Below, piece by piece: positions 1 through 22,548 of a stretch of DNA of 27,603 bases (its first letter is position 1; each line of letters starts with the position of its first letter). The position numbers were made by a program, and so were the translations under genes. Origin of the DNA: Ktedonobacteraceae bacterium (lineage in GTDB: Bacteria > Chloroflexota > Ktedonobacteria > Ktedonobacterales > Ktedonobacteraceae). The stretch is from contig DASTKE010000154.1 of assembly GCA_035716105.1 (NCBI GenBank), forward strand, positions 1 to 27,603. The letters are read 5' to 3'. Below the pieces are notes generated by a model. The model was not told the DNA's origin. It did not search any database and worked only from the letters and a program-made list of their open reading frames with translations.

Positions 1-299
1 ACAGGACAATACCACATACCTCTTGTGTTTGCAAGCATACATACAACCGCACACCTACTACGATACCCGCAACGAGAGCATTCTGTCAAGTTAAGTAATT
101 CAGGGATTAGCATATCGTTTGTGAAGGATAGGTTTTGAAGAGCAGCCTGCAAGGCTGCTCTTCAAAACCTATCCTTCACAAACGATATGCTAATCCCTGA
201 ATTACTTAACTTGACAGAATGCTCTCGTTGCGGGTATCGTAGTAGGTGTGCGGTTGCATGTATGCTTGCAAACACAAGAGGTATGTGGTATTGTCCTGT
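1..299. repeat. Long near-perfect inverted repeat (palindrome): arms 1-148 and 152-299, loop GCA (149-151); may extend beyond the window start
   Basis: Checked base by base: position i pairs with 300-i for 147 of 148 positions; the only mismatch is A43/C257. Confidence 0.98.
211..240 (+). promoter_or_regulatory. Candidate sigma70-type promoter TTGACA-N18-TATCGT, mirrored on the minus strand at 89-60
   Basis: Consensus -35 at 211-216 and a TA---T -10 at 235-240, upstream of the 322..558 ORF. Motif match only. Confidence 0.4.
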
Positions 300-321
300 T
301 CCTGATAAAGAGGTGAATTTC

Positions 322-558
322 GTGTCCAACCTGTTACAGTTTCTTGCTAACGAAGATAAATTGACGGACGAGCTTTTCGCGTTCGTCACCGACCCTAGCG
401 CCGATAACCGCAACGAACGCGCTATTATCAGCGTCCTGCACGAGGTCCTGCCCCAGATGGTTTCGGTCGCCGAATGCATGATCCTGGATGGGGTCGAGGA
501 GCGGCACTATGTCGCTGATTATGTCCATGCTGCCCTCAATGGCGCGAGCTTCGATTAG
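322..558 (+). CDS. Small acidic hypothetical protein (78 aa from GTG322; longest ORF 187..558, 123 aa)
   Basis: Open frame. A strong SD (GAGGTGA, 310-316) lies 5 nt before GTG322. The start at 187 lies inside the palindrome arm. No family recognised. Confidence 0.5.
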   Translation: MSNLLQFLANEDKLTDELFAFVTDPSADNRNERAIISVLHEVLPQMVSVAECMILDGVEERHYVADYVHAALNGASFD

Positions 559-685
559 GCGTCTCCAGCTTTCCTGAACCAGCGTGATACAACCCGTTGC
601 AGGATACGTATCATATATATGTGTGCCTGTAATAGTGCATTGGTACTGGTGAATCTGTTTCGCTGGTGGGAGGAGCGGGCAGTAT

Positions 686-1102
686 ATGACCATGACATTT
701 AAACGACGCCTGTACCGGCTCAGTCTGGTGAGCGCCACTTTATTGCTGCTTGGAGCGCTGGCATATGCTTTGGCGGATGTGGGCATTTATTCGCTGCAAC
801 TCTTCTGGTTCTGCTATCTGTTCACGTTTGCTGGCATCGTTTCTTGCATGAAGACGATGGAGACGTGGAGTTCCTGGCTAGAGGATACCAGCGAAGACTC
901 TGACGAGACGACCCTGCGGAGCAACATTTATCCCCTCGCTTTCAACCTGGAAGCGTTTGCTATTCTCCTGGTAGCCGCGTTTCTCTTTGTCTGGACGGTA
1001 GGAAGATCGCCAACGTCCCAGGAAGGACTGATCTTTATCTGGTGTATTATCGTCGCCATTGGTTGCGCATTGACCGGGCGTCTCGCCGCAGGCCTCGAAT
1101 GA
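686..1102 (+). CDS. Hypothetical membrane protein, about 4 TM segments (138 aa)
   Basis: GGAGGAG SD upstream of ATG686; four hydrophobic stretches with an acidic loop (EDTSEDSDE) between the second and third. Confidence 0.75.
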   Translation: MTMTFKRRLYRLSLVSATLLLLGALAYALADVGIYSLQLFWFCYLFTFAGIVSCMKTMETWSSWLEDTSEDSDETTLRSNIYPLAFNLEAFAILLVAAFLFVWTVGRSPTSQEGLIFIWCIIVAIGCALTGRLAAGLE

Positions 1103-1111
1103 GGCTTTATT

Positions 1112-1194
1112 TCTGGCCGACTAGTGTTTACAAAGAGGTGTAGAACAGCCTGCAAGGCTGTTCTGCACCTCTTTGTAAACACTAGTCGGCCAGA
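1112..1194. repeat. 40-bp-arm hairpin with GCA loop between convergent genes; possible bidirectional terminator or REP-like element
   Basis: 1112-1151 pairs with 1155-1194 at 39 of 40 positions (T1141/G1165). Core CAGCCTGCAAGGCTG is identical to 143-157. Confidence 0.95.
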
Positions 1195-1196
1195 TA

Positions 1197-2774
1197 TTAC
1201 CCGTGATGCCATTGGACGGTAAAGGTGCTGCCTGCCTGATCGAGCGATGATGCTGTCGCTTTTGCAATGCCTGTATCTGTCTGCATCTGGTAGAGAATGT
1301 CCTGCGGGCCGCTCGCGATGGGTTTGTTCTGGTTGAGCAGGCAGGAGATGCTCTCCGTGCCAAAGTCGGTCAACTGCGCGAGATGGCCCGTGTTGCTGGC
1401 GGGATTATCAACGATGGTTGGCGCTTCGACGATGCATTCTGCCACACTGGTATCAAAAGCGTTTCCCGCGTGGGTGGTTGAGAAATGATCGCCTTCCCTG
1501 GGCGCGTCTATACTGAGAGAGAAGGTACTGTGCTGAAAGGATACCGCAGCCGTCACGCTGTCACCCGGCTGAAGAGGCAAGTCAAGCGGCACGGCAGGGT
1601 CTGGAAATGTCTCCCACCAGAGATAGTACTGCGGGTCTCCCGCCTGGCAATCGCTATCCGATCCCAGTTGTGCCAGCAAGCTTTTGTCGGTGGCATCGCT
1701 GGTCATGCCCACCCAGGTGGCTGAAAGCGAGGTTTCTCCGGCGGAACAGTGCGCCTGTGGCACCGTCCACTGTCCCGTGACTTTCTGAAAGGCGACCGGC
1801 TGTCGCTGGTCAAGAGCCATAGCGGCGTATCCGGCGTAGTAGGTATTGGGCTGTGGCAGGATATAGCGAATGGTTCCACTGCGGGTGCCATCGGGATTCA
1901 CGCCCGTTGCCAGCACACTTCCGTCTCCCGTGTTCCCATTGATCGTAAAGCCCAGCGTGAACGGCCCATTGTGAAGGTAGGTGCCGTGTAGTGTGAGGTC
2001 CCAGTGGCAAGTATAAAGATCATTCCCGCTGCTCACGGCGCGACAGATAGGTACTGGTGCCTGTCCTGCAATAGCTGCGGTGAACTCCACGTCTGTGATG
2101 CTGGCATGTTGCGCAAAGACGTAGGCGGATAACTGTAAGCCTGCTCCCTGCACCAGAAAGCCCTCTTCCGGCGAGTTCCACAATCCAGCCATTGTCTTAG
2201 CCGGAACGATGAGGACAGTAATATGGAAGGCACCAGTATTATTGGCAACGTTGGAGGCGTTCACTCCCAGGAACAGGTTCCCTGCTGTTGTCGGATTGAA
2301 GCCAACGTGCGCCCCCACCCCTCCAACCTGTCCGGCGATACCAACACTATAAATGACCGAATAACAGGGAAAATCAGGATATGGCAGGGCAGCAGCATTG
2401 CACGTGAGGGTGCCTGCCGGGCCTGATTGTTTCCCACCTGGCAGAATGCCAGCAGAGCCGGAGGCGAAAATTTCGATCTTTTCGCCCGGCAGCACGGGAA
2501 TACCGGTATCGGCTCCACGTTTGCCAACCGAGAAATCACCGGCAATGTCTCTCAAGCGTTGTTGTGCGGAGAGCAGAAATGTGTAGATGAGTGGATGGGC
2601 TGGAGGCGTCCGACCGATAGCAGAAGCGGTGTCTGAAGGTAGCCCGGCGCAGCCTGATAACAGGATGAGCAAGGCGAGCGACAGGTAGAGCAATTTTCTG
2701 CGGCAGGGTCTGGCACGGTAGCTCGCCTCTCTTTGTGCTTCATGTATTCGCGCTTCATCGCTGTTAGGGGCCAT
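1197..2774 (-). CDS. Lipoprotein with LecA/PA-IL-like lectin domain, Ig-like middle region and C-terminal G1 (eqolisin, Peptidase_A4) glutamic peptidase domain
   Basis: Signal peptide with lipobox LLILLSGC. N-domain DTGIPVLPGEKIEIFASG...GNLFLGVN...NNTGAFHITV. C-domain YAGY, VTGQWTVP, SATWVG, AQLG (catalytic Gln position) and AECIVEAP (catalytic Glu position). Start uncertain: the ORF runs to 2849. Confidence 0.75.
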   Translation of the reverse strand: MAPNSDEARIHEAQREASYRARPCRRKLLYLSLALLILLSGCAGLPSDTASAIGRTPPAHPLIYTFLLSAQQRLRDIAGDFSVGKRGADTGIPVLPGEKIEIFASGSAGILPGGKQSGPAGTLTCNAAALPYPDFPCYSVIYSVGIAGQVGGVGAHVGFNPTTAGNLFLGVNASNVANNTGAFHITVLIVPAKTMAGLWNSPEEGFLVQGAGLQLSAYVFAQHASITDVEFTAAIAGQAPVPICRAVSSGNDLYTCHWDLTLHGTYLHNGPFTLGFTINGNTGDGSVLATGVNPDGTRSGTIRYILPQPNTYYAGYAAMALDQRQPVAFQKVTGQWTVPQAHCSAGETSLSATWVGMTSDATDKSLLAQLGSDSDCQAGDPQYYLWWETFPDPAVPLDLPLQPGDSVTAAVSFQHSTFSLSIDAPREGDHFSTTHAGNAFDTSVAECIVEAPTIVDNPASNTGHLAQLTDFGTESISCLLNQNKPIASGPQDILYQMQTDTGIAKATASSLDQAGSTFTVQWHHG

Positions 2775-2886
2775 TGGTTGAATCCATTCCAGTACTTCAG
2801 GGGTGTAACCAGACGTGCCTATCATATCGTATCTTACATATGCTCGCAAGCGTTTTGGCGGCGATTCGCTACATGTTCCTGCTATA

Positions 2887-3837: not shown

Positions 3838-5172
3838 ATGAATCTGATCATGTTTTCCGTCAAAACGAAGGGCATCCATAATTTTGCCCGGCGGCTCTGG
3901 ACCGTGTTCGCCAGATTCGGCATTTCTGAGAGGCAGACGCGCAATGCCTTGCACTCCCTTGTCGATTCGGTTCGTGCCTACAATTCAGCACCGACATTTT
4001 TCATTCCCGCCGTCGTGCTGAACCGGCACCCTGCGTTGATCGCGGAGATCAAGGGTCTGGGCGCGGAAGTTGGGGTGCATGGATATGTCCACAACGACTA
4101 TCGCACGCTGACTCCTGGTGAGCAGTATAAGCAGACCGAGAAAGCCATCTCTGTATTCCAGCAAACGAACATTCCGCACCAGGGGTTTCGCAATCCCTAT
4201 CTTGGATGGACAGAGGACTCGCTGCGGGTGTTCGAGGCGCTGGGCTTTCTCTACGAGAGCAATGAGGCGGTCATCCATGACGTGATCAACCTCGATGCGC
4301 TCTCGCCTCTCATCAGAAGCGGCTATGAAAAATCGTTGAAGCTGTTCCAGGCCATTTCTCGCAGCACATACTCCCTGCGCCCGCATTTTGAAGGGAATCT
4401 CCTGCGCATTCCCACCAGCATTCCCGATGATGAGATGCTGTTTGATCGCTTGCGCATGGGCGCGAACGAAGTTGGGCGGGCCTGGAGCCGGGTCATGCAG
4501 GGCGTCTATGATCTGGGTGGGCTATATACTCTCAACCTGCACCCCGAACGCGGCATCCTCTGCAAACGCGCCCTGGACGGGTTGTTACGGTACGCGAGCG
4601 CTCGTCCACTTATAGTCTGGACAACCCGATTACAGGATGTCGCGCAGTGGTGGCAGGAACGCCGCCGGTTCAGGCTGGCTATCACGCCAGTTGCGCCCGG
4701 TCGCTGGCAGGTCGAATTGACCTGTACTCCTCGCGCAACGCTCCTGGCGCGCCATGTAACAGTAGAAGATCAGCCCACAAGCGCCTGGTTCGGCGTTGAT
4801 AAGCGTGTGCATTGCGCCTCTCAGCACATGCTCGTATCGGCGGCGCAGTGTCCGTGTATCGCGCTTTCACCAGAAACGCCTCAATCGGTGGCCGATTTTC
4901 TGCACGAGCAGGGCTATCCCGTTGTCTATGATGCAGAGGAGGTGGCTTCCACCTATGCTCTGTATCTCGATATACCACAGGGGCTGGGGACAGTCCGCGA
5001 GGAGCAGTTGCAGCGCCGCAGCGAGCTGGTGGAGCGGATCGAACAACTGGAAGCGCCACTTCTCCATTTTGGCTGCTGGCCCGACGGACAGCGTGCCGCG
5101 CTGGCTATCAGCGGGGATATCGACTCGGTGACTGTGCAAGATTTCTTCCTGCGCATTCTCGAAGTCCATTGA
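3838..5172 (+). CDS. Polysaccharide deacetylase family (CE4/NodB-like) protein
   Basis: TFFIP, H81-G-Y-V-H85 metal motif, FRNPY, LNLH235P, and a motif-1-like WPDGQRAALAISGDID at the C-terminus. Confidence 0.85.
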   Translation: MNLIMFSVKTKGIHNFARRLWTVFARFGISERQTRNALHSLVDSVRAYNSAPTFFIPAVVLNRHPALIAEIKGLGAEVGVHGYVHNDYRTLTPGEQYKQTEKAISVFQQTNIPHQGFRNPYLGWTEDSLRVFEALGFLYESNEAVIHDVINLDALSPLIRSGYEKSLKLFQAISRSTYSLRPHFEGNLLRIPTSIPDDEMLFDRLRMGANEVGRAWSRVMQGVYDLGGLYTLNLHPERGILCKRALDGLLRYASARPLIVWTTRLQDVAQWWQERRRFRLAITPVAPGRWQVELTCTPRATLLARHVTVEDQPTSAWFGVDKRVHCASQHMLVSAAQCPCIALSPETPQSVADFLHEQGYPVVYDAEEVASTYALYLDIPQGLGTVREEQLQRRSELVERIEQLEAPLLHFGCWPDGQRAALAISGDIDSVTVQDFFLRILEVH

Positions 5173-5184
5173 CAGGTCTGCAAT

Positions 5185-5248
5185 GAAGAGGCCAGGAAAA
5201 AGCGCTTCTCTGGATATGTCCAGGGAAGCGCTTTTTCCTGGCCTCTTC
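5185..5248. terminator. 30-bp stem hairpin between convergent genes; probable bidirectional terminator
   Basis: 5185-5214 pairs with 5219-5248 with one T/G pair (5209/5224), loop TATG; no clear U-tract. Confidence 0.7.
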
Positions 5249-5249
5249 G

Positions 5250-6500
5250 CTATTCCACCGCTATCTCTGCATCGCTCGCGACCTGGTAGCGCTCTTCCTC
5301 TTGTTCTCTCTTCCCAGAGAGCGTTTCCAGTAACTGCTGGTAGCGTTGCGCCATTGTTTCCCAGCGATACGGAATATAATCCTCGGAGGCGTTGGCGATC
5401 AGGGATGCACGCTTCTCCGGGCGCTGGTAGAGGTCGATAATGGCCCCGGCGAATGCTTCGTGCTCTAAGGGAGAACAGAGCATGATAGATTCTGGACGGA
5501 ACAGCGAGCGGATGGCCGGCGTATCCGAGGCGATGATGGGACGGTGCATCCAGGCGAACTCGTAGGCTTTCGTGGGCAGCACCAGGTCCATGAAACCATC
5601 GCGGCGATACGGGATGATGCCAACATCGCCATGTACCACGAAATCAACGATCTCGTCGGAGCGGCATGGCTCCGTGAATATCACCGCGTCGCTTATGCCC
5701 AGTTCCGCGGCCAATTGTTTGAGTACGGGCAGATGCTCGCCTCTGCCTTTAATATCCAATCGCACGTTCGGTATGCTCTCGCGTACCAGGGCAATGGCGC
5801 GTATGGCGATATCGAGGCCGTTGCGTTCCGCCAGCGTACCATGATACATCACAATGAACGGGTGGGGTTCCTCGGATGACTCAAATGGGAGGGGATAGCG
5901 GCGCGAGGGCGGGAAGAGTTTGGGATCTGCGCTGTTGAGAATAATGGTCATCTTCTTAGCAGGGATACCGCGCTGCAACAGGACTTTTTCAAAAGGCCAG
6001 CCAACCGTTATCACGGAATCGGCAAACGCGGAGGAGAGGCGCTCCTGCCAGATCGCCAGCAGGGTCACGATATTCTTCTTCGCCCCACTCGACTTTGCCG
6101 CCATCAATTCCGGGCTGGTATCCTGTATCTCTAGAATGACTTTTGCCCCCAGCAGCTTTGGCACCAGAGCCGCGAAGACGAGAAAGTCCGGCATATTGTG
6201 GACGTGGATGACATCGTAACGTCGCTTGAGGTGCAGCCGGGTGATGGTCATCGCCGCCAGGAGGAGGAACCAGCACCAGCTCAGGATGGTCATGGGCAGT
6301 GAGCGGCCAAAGCCTCGATCCATTGGCAGGCGATAGACATGCACGCCGTTGCAGACTTCATGGCGCTTCTCGTCCGCCCGGCGCAAGCAAATCACATCGA
6401 CGCTATTCCCGGCGGCGACCGCCGCGTCAGCGACGCGGCGTACCAGGGGATCAAAAGGGAACCAGTCAAAGGTAATTGTGCCAACTCGTATTGACGACAT
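5250..6500 (-). CDS. Glycosyltransferase family 4 (GT-B), 416 aa
   Basis: SD AAAGGA before ATG6500; HVHNMPD, YHGTLAERNG and PTKAYEFAWMHRPIIASD motifs. The track's extension to 6701 overlaps the upstream gene and is probably non-coding. Confidence 0.9.
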   Translation of the reverse strand: MSSIRVGTITFDWFPFDPLVRRVADAAVAAGNSVDVICLRRADEKRHEVCNGVHVYRLPMDRGFGRSLPMTILSWCWFLLLAAMTITRLHLKRRYDVIHVHNMPDFLVFAALVPKLLGAKVILEIQDTSPELMAAKSSGAKKNIVTLLAIWQERLSSAFADSVITVGWPFEKVLLQRGIPAKKMTIILNSADPKLFPPSRRYPLPFESSEEPHPFIVMYHGTLAERNGLDIAIRAIALVRESIPNVRLDIKGRGEHLPVLKQLAAELGISDAVIFTEPCRSDEIVDFVVHGDVGIIPYRRDGFMDLVLPTKAYEFAWMHRPIIASDTPAIRSLFRPESIMLCSPLEHEAFAGAIIDLYQRPEKRASLIANASEDYIPYRWETMAQRYQQLLETLSGKREQEEERYQVASDAEIAVE

Positions 6501-6525
6501 AACGATAACATCCTTTCGTATCATT

Positions 6526-7785
6526 TCAGGCACTGCGGCTTGTACGTACCCATTCACTTGTATGTTTTTTGCTTCTCCTGAGCACGAAGTATACCCAGAG
6601 TTTCCAGAGCATAAAGCCCGGAGCGTGCAGGAGCGCCCGGTACACGGCTTGAGGCGGCTGCAACAGGTACAGGGGAGTAGCGATGTACCCCAGCAATCCA
6701 CCGATCAGCAGCAGGCTGAGCAGGAGTTCAATCGTTGCAAGAAGTGCGAACGGCGACCAGAGGAAGCCTATGAGCGCAGCCAGCAGCATGAGCAAGCAAC
6801 CGCATACCAGCGAAGAAAGCGGCGGCGTCAGCAATTCGGCTGTCGCCTCGATACGTGCGGGATCGCGAAAGCGAATGCCCGCCCGCAGCAATCTCGCGGC
6901 GATGCGCCATGTTGATTGAGAACCGTCTCCGGTTGGTGATTCCCAGCGTACATCTTGCGTGCGCATCTGAGAAAATGTGGTCGGCATCTGCGAGCGTACC
7001 ACCGCTTCAGGGACATAGCATACCCGCTCACCATGTTCTATCAGGATGAGGTAATACTGGTAGTCCTCTCCAATTGTGAATGCTTGCCAGGGATAGCGCT
7101 GGAGAAGATCGTGGCTCAAACACATGCCGTTGCCGGTGAGCGTAGAGGAGGCACCGAGGCCATTTCTACCGAGGGTGCGCACGTGGTTGACCAGCGAGAG
7201 GGCAATCCAGCGCAGGGCCGCGCTGGGAGATTCTGTAATATTGAGTACCGTGTTATTTGCCTGCAATGCCCGTGCGCCTTGCGAGAATGCTCTTGCCATC
7301 GCCTGTAAAAAGGTTGGTACTACCACTGAGTCGGCATCGAGCACAATGTAGGCATCGTGGATACGCCGGTCTTCAGCTAGCTTCTGTAAGAGCCAGTTCA
7401 GCGCGTAGCCCTTGCCACGCTTGCTGCTATCAAAGCGCTCGTAGACCTGTACGCCCCCCGTATCTCCCATCGCACGAGCCAGCGCGGCTGTGTCATCCGT
7501 GCAATTGTCGGCTACCACGTAGACCATGAAGTGTCCCTTTGGATATGCAAGCTCTTTCAGGCTGCTCAATAAGCTCGCCAGTATCATTGCCTCGTTGTGG
7601 GCCGGAATCAGTATGGCGAAGTTGGGCAACTGCGCTGGCGCAACATCTGTGTGAGTGTGCTTACTTCTCCTGCTTCTCGTGGTCAGAATTGCGGAGATGC
7701 TCAGGAGACACAAATACAGGATCGGGAGGGCTATGCTTATTTCCACAAACAGAAGTAGCCATCTGATGATCTGCGCTGCTAGCAT
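6526..7785 (-). CDS. Glycosyltransferase family 2, membrane-bound, synthase-like (IcaA/BcsA-type motifs)
   Basis: IPAHNE, ADNCTD, KGYALN, LDADS (DxD), GED and QDVRW (QxxRW); N- and C-terminal TM segments. Confidence 0.92.
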   Translation of the reverse strand: MLAAQIIRWLLLFVEISIALPILYLCLLSISAILTTRSRRSKHTHTDVAPAQLPNFAILIPAHNEAMILASLLSSLKELAYPKGHFMVYVVADNCTDDTAALARAMGDTGGVQVYERFDSSKRGKGYALNWLLQKLAEDRRIHDAYIVLDADSVVVPTFLQAMARAFSQGARALQANNTVLNITESPSAALRWIALSLVNHVRTLGRNGLGASSTLTGNGMCLSHDLLQRYPWQAFTIGEDYQYYLILIEHGERVCYVPEAVVRSQMPTTFSQMRTQDVRWESPTGDGSQSTWRIAARLLRAGIRFRDPARIEATAELLTPPLSSLVCGCLLMLLAALIGFLWSPFALLATIELLLSLLLIGGLLGYIATPLYLLQPPQAVYRALLHAPGFMLWKLWVYFVLRRSKKHTSEWVRTSRSA

Positions 7786-20395: not shown

Positions 20396-21442
20396 ATGGC
20401 ACTTGCGCTCGCCACCAACTCCGATTTAAACGCTTTTATTGAACAGCAGGCTACAGAAACGTTTTATTTCCGCCAGGAATGGCTTGATCTGATCGCTCAG
20501 CTTTACGGGTACACAGTCATTCCACTCACCACGAAAAACGCGGCTGGGGAATATAGCGGCTTCCTGCCTCTTTGTGATATGCACAGTCCGCTAACGGGCA
20601 GGCGGTTGGTGGCTTTGCCTTTTGCCGATTTCACTCCTCTGCTGGCAAAGGACGAAAGCAGCGCCCACGATCTGATTGATCAGGCGCTTCGTCTGGCACG
20701 GCAGCACAGGGCAAAATACCTGGAATTGCGCAGCGGTGCCAATGCTGTGCTCGCAAAGCGCCCTGAACTGGTGGAGGAAAACCTGTATGTGAGCTGGCAG
20801 CTCCCGCTGGCTGCCGATGCCGGTGCTGCCTGGTCAGCATTGAGGAAACCAGTACAGCGCCAGATCAAGAAATCACAGGGATCAGGTGTGCAGGTGCGCA
20901 TTGCCGAAAATCGCGAGGATATGTTGCATTTTTATCGTCTCCACCTGCAAACGCGCAGCAAAAAGCACGGTATGCCTGCGCAGCCACGGCGTTTCTTCTT
21001 TGATCTCTGGGATGCCTTTGCCGCTAACGATGCCATGCAGTTGCTGCTGGCGGAGCACGAGGGAAACGTCATCGCCAGTATGGTCCTGTTCGCTTCCGGC
21101 TCAACTGTGCGCTATGCCTACGGCGCGTCTGATGAGCGGTCTCTGCGCCTGGCACCCAACAACCTGCTGATGTGGAAAGCTATCACATGGGGCTGCTCGC
21201 GGGGATATAAGACGCTCGACATGGGACGAACATCGTGCGACAACGAGGGGTTGATGGAGTTTAAGCGCCGCTGGGGGGCAGTGCAGCAGCCGCTGCCGTA
21301 CTATTACTATCCACAAACGGCTGGACTGGCCTCTACATCTGAAAGCAGTTGGAAATTTCGCCTGCTCACAACAAGCTGGAAAAAGCTCCCGCTTCGGCTA
21401 GCAGGGCCATTGGGCGGGCGTATCTACAAGCATCTTGGCTGA
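20396..21442 (+). CDS. FemAB-like / GNAT (Acetyltransf_6-type) protein
   Basis: LVALPF.D, YLELRSG, RQIKKS, YAYGAS, PNNLLMWKAI and LDMGRT..DNEGLMEFKRRWG; double-GNAT length; SD GGGAGG. Confidence 0.88.
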   Translation: MALALATNSDLNAFIEQQATETFYFRQEWLDLIAQLYGYTVIPLTTKNAAGEYSGFLPLCDMHSPLTGRRLVALPFADFTPLLAKDESSAHDLIDQALRLARQHRAKYLELRSGANAVLAKRPELVEENLYVSWQLPLAADAGAAWSALRKPVQRQIKKSQGSGVQVRIAENREDMLHFYRLHLQTRSKKHGMPAQPRRFFFDLWDAFAANDAMQLLLAEHEGNVIASMVLFASGSTVRYAYGASDERSLRLAPNNLLMWKAITWGCSRGYKTLDMGRTSCDNEGLMEFKRRWGAVQQPLPYYYYPQTAGLASTSESSWKFRLLTTSWKKLPLRLAGPLGGRIYKHLG

Positions 21443-21452
21443 AAAACCGGAG

Positions 21453-21506
21453 CGTATAATGGAGGGCGATGGTTGCGCATTCTCGACCATCGCCCTCCAT
21501 TATGCG
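21453..21506. terminator. Hairpin of about 21-23 bp between convergent genes; probable bidirectional terminator
   Basis: 21453-21475 pairs with 21484-21506, including two T/G pairs. A T5 run follows shortly after the stem on the minus strand. Confidence 0.7.
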
Positions 21507-21525: not shown

Positions 21526-22548
21526 CTAATCGCTTGCCGCCAATGCAACGTCTCTCTGGCGTTCTTGTCGATCCAGCGTTTCCTGAGCCATCGCCAGGAT
21601 ACGCACGACTTCCAATCCGACACCGCCGTGGGCGCGGGGCTGTTCGCCAGTACGAATGGCATGGGCGAAATCCTCGCATTCGAGCCGCAGCGGTTCCCGC
21701 CAGTCAATGTAGGGAATGGTGATTTCACCGTTGCGATAGGAGATAACCGGGTCGGCGTAGACATCGGCTCCTTTGTTATAGACCTTGATCATTTCAGAAG
21801 GGTTGGTGTCATCATAGACTACCATGCGCAGGTCGCCAATCACCGTCACACGGCGAATCTTGCAGGGATGGAGCCAGCTCACATGAATATGGGCAACCGT
21901 TCCGTCCGCGAAACTCAAATCCAGATCCGCGACATCCTGGATATGCGTCTGGATATGGGCGTGGGCATGAACCCGAATGCGTTCCGGTTTTTTGCCGAGA
22001 ATGTACAGCAAAATCGAGATGTCATGGGGCGCAAGGTCCCATATGACATTGATATCCCTACGAAATAGTCCCAGGTTTACCCGGTCTGCCTCGATGCGGT
22101 AGATTTTGCCGAGGTCTCCGCTTTGTACGAGCTTGCGCAACTCGTTGACGGCGGGATTGTACTCAAAGGTATGTCCAACCATCAAGATACGCTGCTGCTG
22201 CTTTGCCAGGGCAACCAGTTCTTCGGCTTCCGCGACGCTGGCTGTCAATGGCTTCTCGACAAGCACATGCTTTCCATGTAATAAGGCTTCTTTCGCCAGC
22301 TGGTAGTGCGCACGCACAGGTGTGACGATCACGACTCCATCGACATCTGACCGGAAGACATCCTCTGCTCGTGTTGTCTTGCGCACCCGCGACAGGTACT
22401 GATCTGTTTCCAACAAGGCCAGGCGGTGTGCATCTGCATCTGCTACCATCGTCACCGCCGAATGTGGTAAGCTATCAAGGTTGCGTGCCAGTTTAGGACC
22501 CCAGTATCCCCAACCAATAACCCCGAAACGCAGGTCCATCATGTCCAT
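21526..22548 (-). CDS. Gfo/Idh/MocA family oxidoreductase (probable nucleotide-sugar dehydrogenase)
   Basis: GVIGWGYWG, GKHVLVEKP, MVGHTFEYNP and WDLAPHD motifs. Confidence 0.93.
   Translation of the reverse strand: MDMMDLRFGVIGWGYWGPKLARNLDSLPHSAVTMVADADAHRLALLETDQYLSRVRKTTRAEDVFRSDVDGVVIVTPVRAHYQLAKEALLHGKHVLVEKPLTASVAEAEELVALAKQQQRILMVGHTFEYNPAVNELRKLVQSGDLGKIYRIEADRVNLGLFRRDINVIWDLAPHDISILLYILGKKPERIRVHAHAHIQTHIQDVADLDLSFADGTVAHIHVSWLHPCKIRRVTVIGDLRMVVYDDTNPSEMIKVYNKGADVYADPVISYRNGEITIPYIDWREPLRLECEDFAHAIRTGEQPRAHGGVGLEVVRILAMAQETLDRQERQRDVALAASD

Follow-up and report, generated by a model that had tools for sequence, protein, structure and literature searches.

A 299-nt palindrome at a contig end of a Ktedonobacteraceae genome: a probable assembly fold-back on a natural gene-end hairpin

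The window analyzed here is the whole of contig C154 (27,603 nt) of a Ktedonobacteraceae metagenome-assembled genome (MAG G000; 4.67 Mb in 893 contigs with a median length of 4 kb, 77% complete), and its features are collected in Table 1. To the right of a palindrome that occupies the contig end, a promoter scan detected a promoter-like site, TTGACA-N18-TATCGT, at positions 211-240; both CTTGACA and GGTATCGTA were invariant in an alignment with four Ktedonobacteraceae relatives and one strain variant. The product of the small gene that follows found no match in Pfam, and its relatives share 72-94% amino acid identity in Ktedonobacteraceae and 46-49% in Solirubrobacteraceae MAGs. In relatives this small gene lies, together with its promoter, inside chromosomes, as seen in a congener's long-read contig of 1.27 Mb and in complete Dictyobacter and Ktedonosporobacter genomes; many of the closest relatives are short-read soil MAGs with contig names of the k141 type. 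Beyond the next ORF and a second hairpin, an opposed gene at 1197-2849 (- strand) has a product of 550 aa whose residues 350-503 match a Peptidase A4 (eqolisin-type) domain; this family is unusual in bacteria.

Table 1. Features of the window, with their positions and the evidence for each.
Feature	Positions	Strand	Evidence or remark
Artefactual fold-back, T257 allele	1-101	none	X1/X5 k=31 contigs; A43 = T257 allele
Natural hairpin, left arm, 47 nt	102-148	+	Stem and loop unitigs, flank translation
Natural hairpin, GCA loop	149-151	+	Sequence, folding
Natural hairpin, right arm, 47 nt	152-198	+	47-nt Logan unitig covering exactly 152-198
Native intergenic region and 5' leader of the small gene	199-321	+	Promoter scan, alignment
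Small conserved gene, 78 aa from GTG 322	322-558	+	SD-like AGAGGTG upstream
138-aa ORF, no Pfam family	686-1102	+	Stop codon 7-10 nt from hairpin 1109-1197
Second natural hairpin, 43-nt arms at 95%, GCA loop	1109-1197	none	Perfect core 1112-1194
Gene-end hairpin, 30-nt arms, 4-nt loop	5185-5248	none	Flanking genes convergent: 3838-5172 (+), 5250-6701 (-)
Gene-end hairpin, 21-nt arms, 12-nt loop	21453-21506	none	Flanking ORFs convergent: 20396-21442 (+), 21526-22548 (-)

The original prediction for this DNA described a palindrome of 148-bp arms around a GCA loop that runs to base 1, and our repeat search and a script reproduced every part of that description: positions 1-148 pair with 152-299 at 147 of 148 positions, the spacer GCA occupies 149-151, and the symmetry extends to base 1 of the window. 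The sole mismatch between the arms is A43 opposite C257. For a palindrome of such length chance is irrelevant, and the central part (95-215) folds as RNA at -99 kcal/mol (z = -23). The suspicion that base 1 might be a contig end was also borne out, the window being the entire contig.

Near-identical sequence (at least 90% of the sampled 31-mers) was present in soil metagenome runs of at least eight studies, and the Logan k=31 contigs of four of these runs were placed on window 1-1400. Around the palindrome these contigs broke into four pieces: a loop piece of 63 nt at 119-181, a stem piece of 47 nt at exactly 152-198, a right-flank contig that begins at 169 and runs rightwards, and, in X1 (1160 nt) and X5 (2082 nt), a second contig that has only 169-198 in common with the window and then continues as unique sequence, ACTGGGCGGGTGGGCGATTT... 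Both flank contigs start 30 nt (k-1) inside the stem, at 169, and leave the stem base at 198/199. As both arms collapse into one unitig and each of the two flanks overlaps it by k-1 = 30 nt, the arrangement is the one that a 47-nt hairpin stem produces in a k=31 graph. The depth of the right flank and of the other flank was 7.4 and 5.3 in X1, and 10.0 and 12.1 in X5. As a positive control, the hairpin at 1109-1197, for which both flanks are known, fell into four corresponding pieces in these runs (1112-1151, 1122-1184, a left contig reaching 1141 and a right one from 1166 onward).

The four-piece pattern and the two flanks imply that the order in the genome is the unique flank, 102-148, GCA, 152-198 and then 199 onward. 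The genomic part of the palindrome is therefore only its inner 97 nt (102-198, with a 47-bp stem), and window 1-101 is an inverted copy of 199-299 instead of the upstream sequence of the genome. Positions 199-299 are the template of this artefactual left arm, and the promoter seen at 89-60, directed off the contig, is a mirrored copy. The original prediction was accordingly right in part: its cruciform element survives as the 47-bp hairpin at the centre and fails as an element of 148 bp or more, and its fold-back artefact, suggested by an arm length near that of a read, holds for the outer 101 nt of each arm.

The reverse complement of the loose end is the true upstream flank, which is known solely as a 30-nt consensus. 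Joined to position 102 it closes an ORF ending in ...PLENRPPAQ*, whose stop codon TAG is made up of the last T of the flank, A102 and G103 and is flush with the base of the stem. This position agrees with the distance between stop codon and stem in the genome as a whole, which peaks at -5 to +11 nt. MAG G000 holds no contig with the true upstream flank or with the outer stem; the missing flank contig probably fell under the 2-kb contig cut-off or was left unbinned. The flank 30-mer gave no meaningful match in any fetched locus, and an exact 30-mer from 195-224 had no match in JGI metagenome contigs.

An ENA contig from another sample (ERZ1761209, 1860 nt) carries a 302-aa ORF on the + strand upstream of the 91-aa and 138-aa products. 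The reverse strand of 152-1100 contains no such 302-aa ORF, so that ERZ1761209 is not itself a fold-back. Its 302-aa ORF ends 84 nt before ATG 283, and the gene coordinates alone would suggest an allele 95 nt shorter, without the hairpin, in which the upstream stop abuts base 199. Strains may thus differ by the gain or loss of such hairpins at gene ends. In a strain that is 97% identical (L005), the sequence upstream of position 194 is unrelated. In two congeners (G001 and G002) a GH20 hexosaminidase lies upstream of the small gene, and it had no match in G000. A GH20 identity of the upstream gene found no support: neither GH20 homologues nor cluster members have a C-terminus that fits the end of the flank ORF. 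Contigs encoding P0125 were likewise discarded as a source of the upstream gene; they belong to another organism.

The single mismatch of the palindrome had been put forward as an argument for real biology, and it loses that value here. T257 was found in 6 of the 8 Logan contigs fetched via the 138-aa protein and in 3 of the 4 runs placed, and the window has C257. A43 of the left arm is the base that would pair with T257, and the right arm carries C257; the two arms are two alleles of one locus and the mismatch is a population SNP. The presence of two alleles in two arms fits an assembler walking back via the variant branch, unlike a self-copied duplication. The haplotype T225/C257/T928 occurred in none of the runs, and the sample of the MAG itself was not recognized among them. 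At the locus 152-2400 SNPs were seen only at 225, 257 and 928, and at least 90% of its sampled 31-mers were also present in runs labelled with one organism only by name; this species or strain is thus found very widely, with near clonality over the interval. More generally, a mismatch inside such a palindrome is no proof of authenticity in a metagenome, where it may be a strain SNP.

A palindrome scan of all 893 contigs of G000 placed this contig end among others of its kind. Inside contigs it found 299 palindromes, or 297 once overlapping ones are merged, whose arms measure 15-51 nt and mostly 20-45 nt. Arms longer than 51 nt occurred in 13 palindromes, and 13 of 13 were within 3 nt of a contig end. 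Altogether, at 49 contig ends the last base coincides exactly with the outer edge of a palindrome; contig ends stopping at natural stems of 15-47 nt numbered 37. The perfect loop-less terminal palindromes, found on contigs C157, C356, C817, C137, C460, C629 and C519, measured 118 (one case), 128 (three cases) and 138 nt (three cases), that is, they increase in 10-nt steps, and terminal palindromes with asymmetric loops had arms of 116-148 nt. The longest perfect run was 132 nt, and all arms above 138 nt contain mismatches. These size classes would reflect a multi-k de Bruijn assembler advancing in 10-nt steps. Hairpins are a main cause of fragmentation in G000.

Together, a palindrome that touches a contig end and recurs at other ends, long arms that are never internal, arm lengths bounded as k-mer logic expects, and unique sequence replacing the outer arm in independent data lead us to conclude, with a probability of about 0.88, that assembly folded the contig back on a real hairpin, whose stem is 47 bp, and so made the 299-nt palindrome. 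Neither a replicon end nor a palindrome of 299 bp or more should consequently be annotated in this genome. Inverted duplications of this type at contig ends risk being taken for telomeres, cruciforms or inverted-repeat mobile elements in automated scans.

As to how such a fold-back would arise, the contig may, during short-read metagenome assembly, have entered the hairpin from the right, crossed the loop and then run back along its own reverse complement, missing the true flank. In a de Bruijn graph a long stem has the same nodes for its two strands, so that a fold-back path would be possible, and a few snap-back or chimeric reads, or an uncovered true junction, could let this path win. A perfect fold-back is limited to about k-1 nt, as a unitig cannot hold a k-mer plus its reverse complement, and a unitig entering a perfect palindrome would end about k/2 beyond the centre. 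The arm could have reached 148 nt by using the T257 k-mers of the second allele, which would be distinct nodes; every word of at least 106 nt in the left arm covers position 43, so that the SNP would have let the arm exceed k-1. The end of the arm at 148 may mark the end of minor-allele support, roughly one read length.

True reads cannot supply words that connect the stem with the inverted flank when k is larger than about 49, and such words would thus call for snap-back or chimeric molecules or for a step of the assembler; the fold-back junction could be due to chimeric reads or be the work of the assembler by itself. Library preparation is documented to yield chimeric reads that start from inverted repeats (PDSM model, PMC10908179). 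A perfect stem of 47 bp is an ideal seed for them. The hairpin also seems to be under-sequenced, with a depth of 3.2 for the loop piece against about 7 expected and of 6.7 for the stem piece against about 15, which, where coverage is low, would leave the true junction weakly supported. Fold-back molecules cannot be counted from the k=31 contigs, since a fold-back on a 47-nt stem yields no distinctive word until k reaches 49.

The natural hairpin at 102-198 is most likely a transcription terminator or a stem-loop that protects 3' ends. It has a perfect 47-bp stem with a GCA loop, it stands just downstream of a stop (the TAG overlaps the base of the stem), and the conserved promoter lies 12 nt downstream. 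It belongs to a population of 212 internal hairpins with arms of at least 25 nt in G000 (median 34 nt, range 25-51 bp), 81% of which are perfect. Of these hairpins, 80 stand between convergent, 82 between co-directional and 11 between divergent genes, and 17 fall within ORFs, although coding sequence makes up about 85% of the genome. Whichever strand is read, purines prevail in the 5' arm and C and T in the 3' arm (T 30-43%), and the GC content is 0.59 at the apex against 0.43 at the base. The flank after the stem is mildly T-rich; a separate T-run does not follow 102-198, and a terminator consensus scan does not call this hairpin. Placement and polarity match bidirectional terminators or 3'-end stabilizers with stems several times longer than usual. 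In the window, the hairpins at 1109-1197 (between 686-1102 on the + strand and 1197-2849 on the - strand), 5185-5248 and 21453-21506 each fit exactly between the stops of convergent genes.

At the position of 102-198 the congeners carry different and shorter hairpins, with arms of 11 bp (G001) and 18 bp (G002). Hairpins with arms of at least 25 nt occur at 45 per Mb in G000 and at 7.5 per Mb in 400 kb of the long-read congener G001, a difference of about sixfold. Similar hairpins were seen in other members of the family, including a long-read MAG with 39-nt arms. A literature search on hairpins or palindromes of Ktedonobacter found nothing specific. Hundreds of unique, perfect stems of 25-51 bp that abut stop codons make a moderately interesting case for the study of transcription termination and of palindrome stability in Chloroflexota.

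If an inverted duplication had really formed in vivo around the natural hairpin, in every cell or only in some cells of the species, it would give the same palindrome without any error of assembly. The k=31 data are compatible with it, and the k-mers of the assembly that join the stem to the inverted flank indicate that some molecules, in vivo or in vitro, were probably so built; palindrome-centred inverted duplications are known biology (PMC3315005), and palindromes can seed them in E. coli. Against it, the unique upstream flank is as deep as the right flank in two independent runs, the arms differ in a SNP allele, which is unlikely for a fresh self-copied duplication, and the same type of end recurs on the 49 contig ends, with assembler-like sizes and never internally, so that we consider this duplication very unlikely. 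An equally slim chance is given to an in-vivo process, hairpin-primed or template-switch synthesis, by which perfect gene-end palindromes would arise and grow and true inverted duplications would occasionally form; if true, it would explain stems of 30-50 bp that are unique, 81% perfect, some six times denser than in the congener and apparently variable between strains. A hairpin telomere formed by a protelomerase, or a Streptomyces-type telomere with a terminal protein, read around its tip, would likewise leave a contig-end palindrome limited to about k-1, and Streptomyces telomere fold-backs contain GCA loops. The sequence beyond the hairpin is nevertheless the unique flank in X1 and X5, present at normal depth, and a 302-aa ORF on the ENA contig; the small gene and its promoter are chromosome-internal in relatives, with an upstream gene in direct orientation, 49 contig ends cannot all be telomeres, and a single perfect stem stands in place of the series of short successive palindromes of Streptomyces-type ends. 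A gene for a protelomerase, which the original prediction had suggested to look for, did not turn up, the domain of ResT/TelK (PF16684) giving no match in the 77%-complete G000. The replicon end proposed there was rejected on the equal depth of the flank and on the internal position of the locus in relatives, and its probability is close to nil.

The fold-back thus remains the preferred account of the outer arms, and a further question concerns the core at 102-198, which could be a mobile palindromic element (MITE- or REP-like, with a Y1/RAYT transposase), the two hairpins bracketing a two-gene cassette and owing their apex to common descent. The second copy of the core that had been noted at 1146-1160 is there, CAGCCTGCAAGGCTG being present both at that place and at 143-157; it had been offered as an argument for real biology, and it turned out to be the apex of another natural gene-end hairpin. 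The two hairpins, 102-198 and 1109-1197, lie 1 kb apart and are identical in 11 of 13 apex stem bases and in the GCA loop, an identity (at least 11/13) reached by 9 of 40,186 hairpin pairs in G000, among which apex identity follows a random-like distribution. The 13-mer of the apex occurs three times in 4.67 Mb and the 15-mer twice. This likeness mildly exceeds chance for neighbours and bears nothing on the 299-nt palindrome. A similar apex was observed in GCA-loop hairpins on C255, C615 and C727. The rare apex identity, the different and shorter hairpins of congeners at the same spot, and the ENA coordinates, which would fit a hairpin-less allele shorter by 95 nt, speak for mobility, and the search for a Y1/RAYT gene, also part of the original prediction, returned a single marginal Y1_Tnp match in G000. 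On the other side, the stems of about 300 hairpins are unrelated in sequence, each one unique, so that the one shared consensus of REP/RAYT systems is missing; terminal repeats and target duplications were not found, and hairpins that are flush with stops, rare between divergent genes and patterned in purine and pyrimidine arms point to the 3' ends of transcripts. We therefore regard a mobile origin of the core as unlikely and retain the gene-end stem-loop as its explanation.

With respect to known systems, the contig end resembles the fold-back ends of de Bruijn assemblies and PDSM chimeras, as it is a recurrent structure centred on an inverted repeat, with arms that come from the same locus and are bounded by k or read length; it differs in its 47-bp perfect seed and in the strain SNP that would let the arm exceed k-1. 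It shares with hairpin and Streptomyces telomeres the terminal position of the palindrome in the assembly and the GCA loop, and differs from them in the unique sequence beyond it, in its one stem and in that no protelomerase domain was found in the 77%-complete G000. As in REP/BIME elements with their RAYT proteins, the hairpins of G000 are intergenic palindromes in hundreds of copies, but they form no shared sequence family and are accompanied by a single marginal Y1_Tnp match. Hairpins lacking much of a U-tract, called 'I-shaped', have been proposed for mycobacteria and actinobacteria (discussed in PMC3993855). The hairpins of G000 differ from intrinsic terminators in stems of 25-51 bp against the usual 5-14 bp and in the missing separate T-run at 102-198, where the terminator role is predicted; they resemble them in the stem-loop right after stop codons, the enrichment between convergent genes, the GC-richer apex, the A/G-rich 5' arm facing a C/T-rich 3' arm, and the possibility of acting on both strands.
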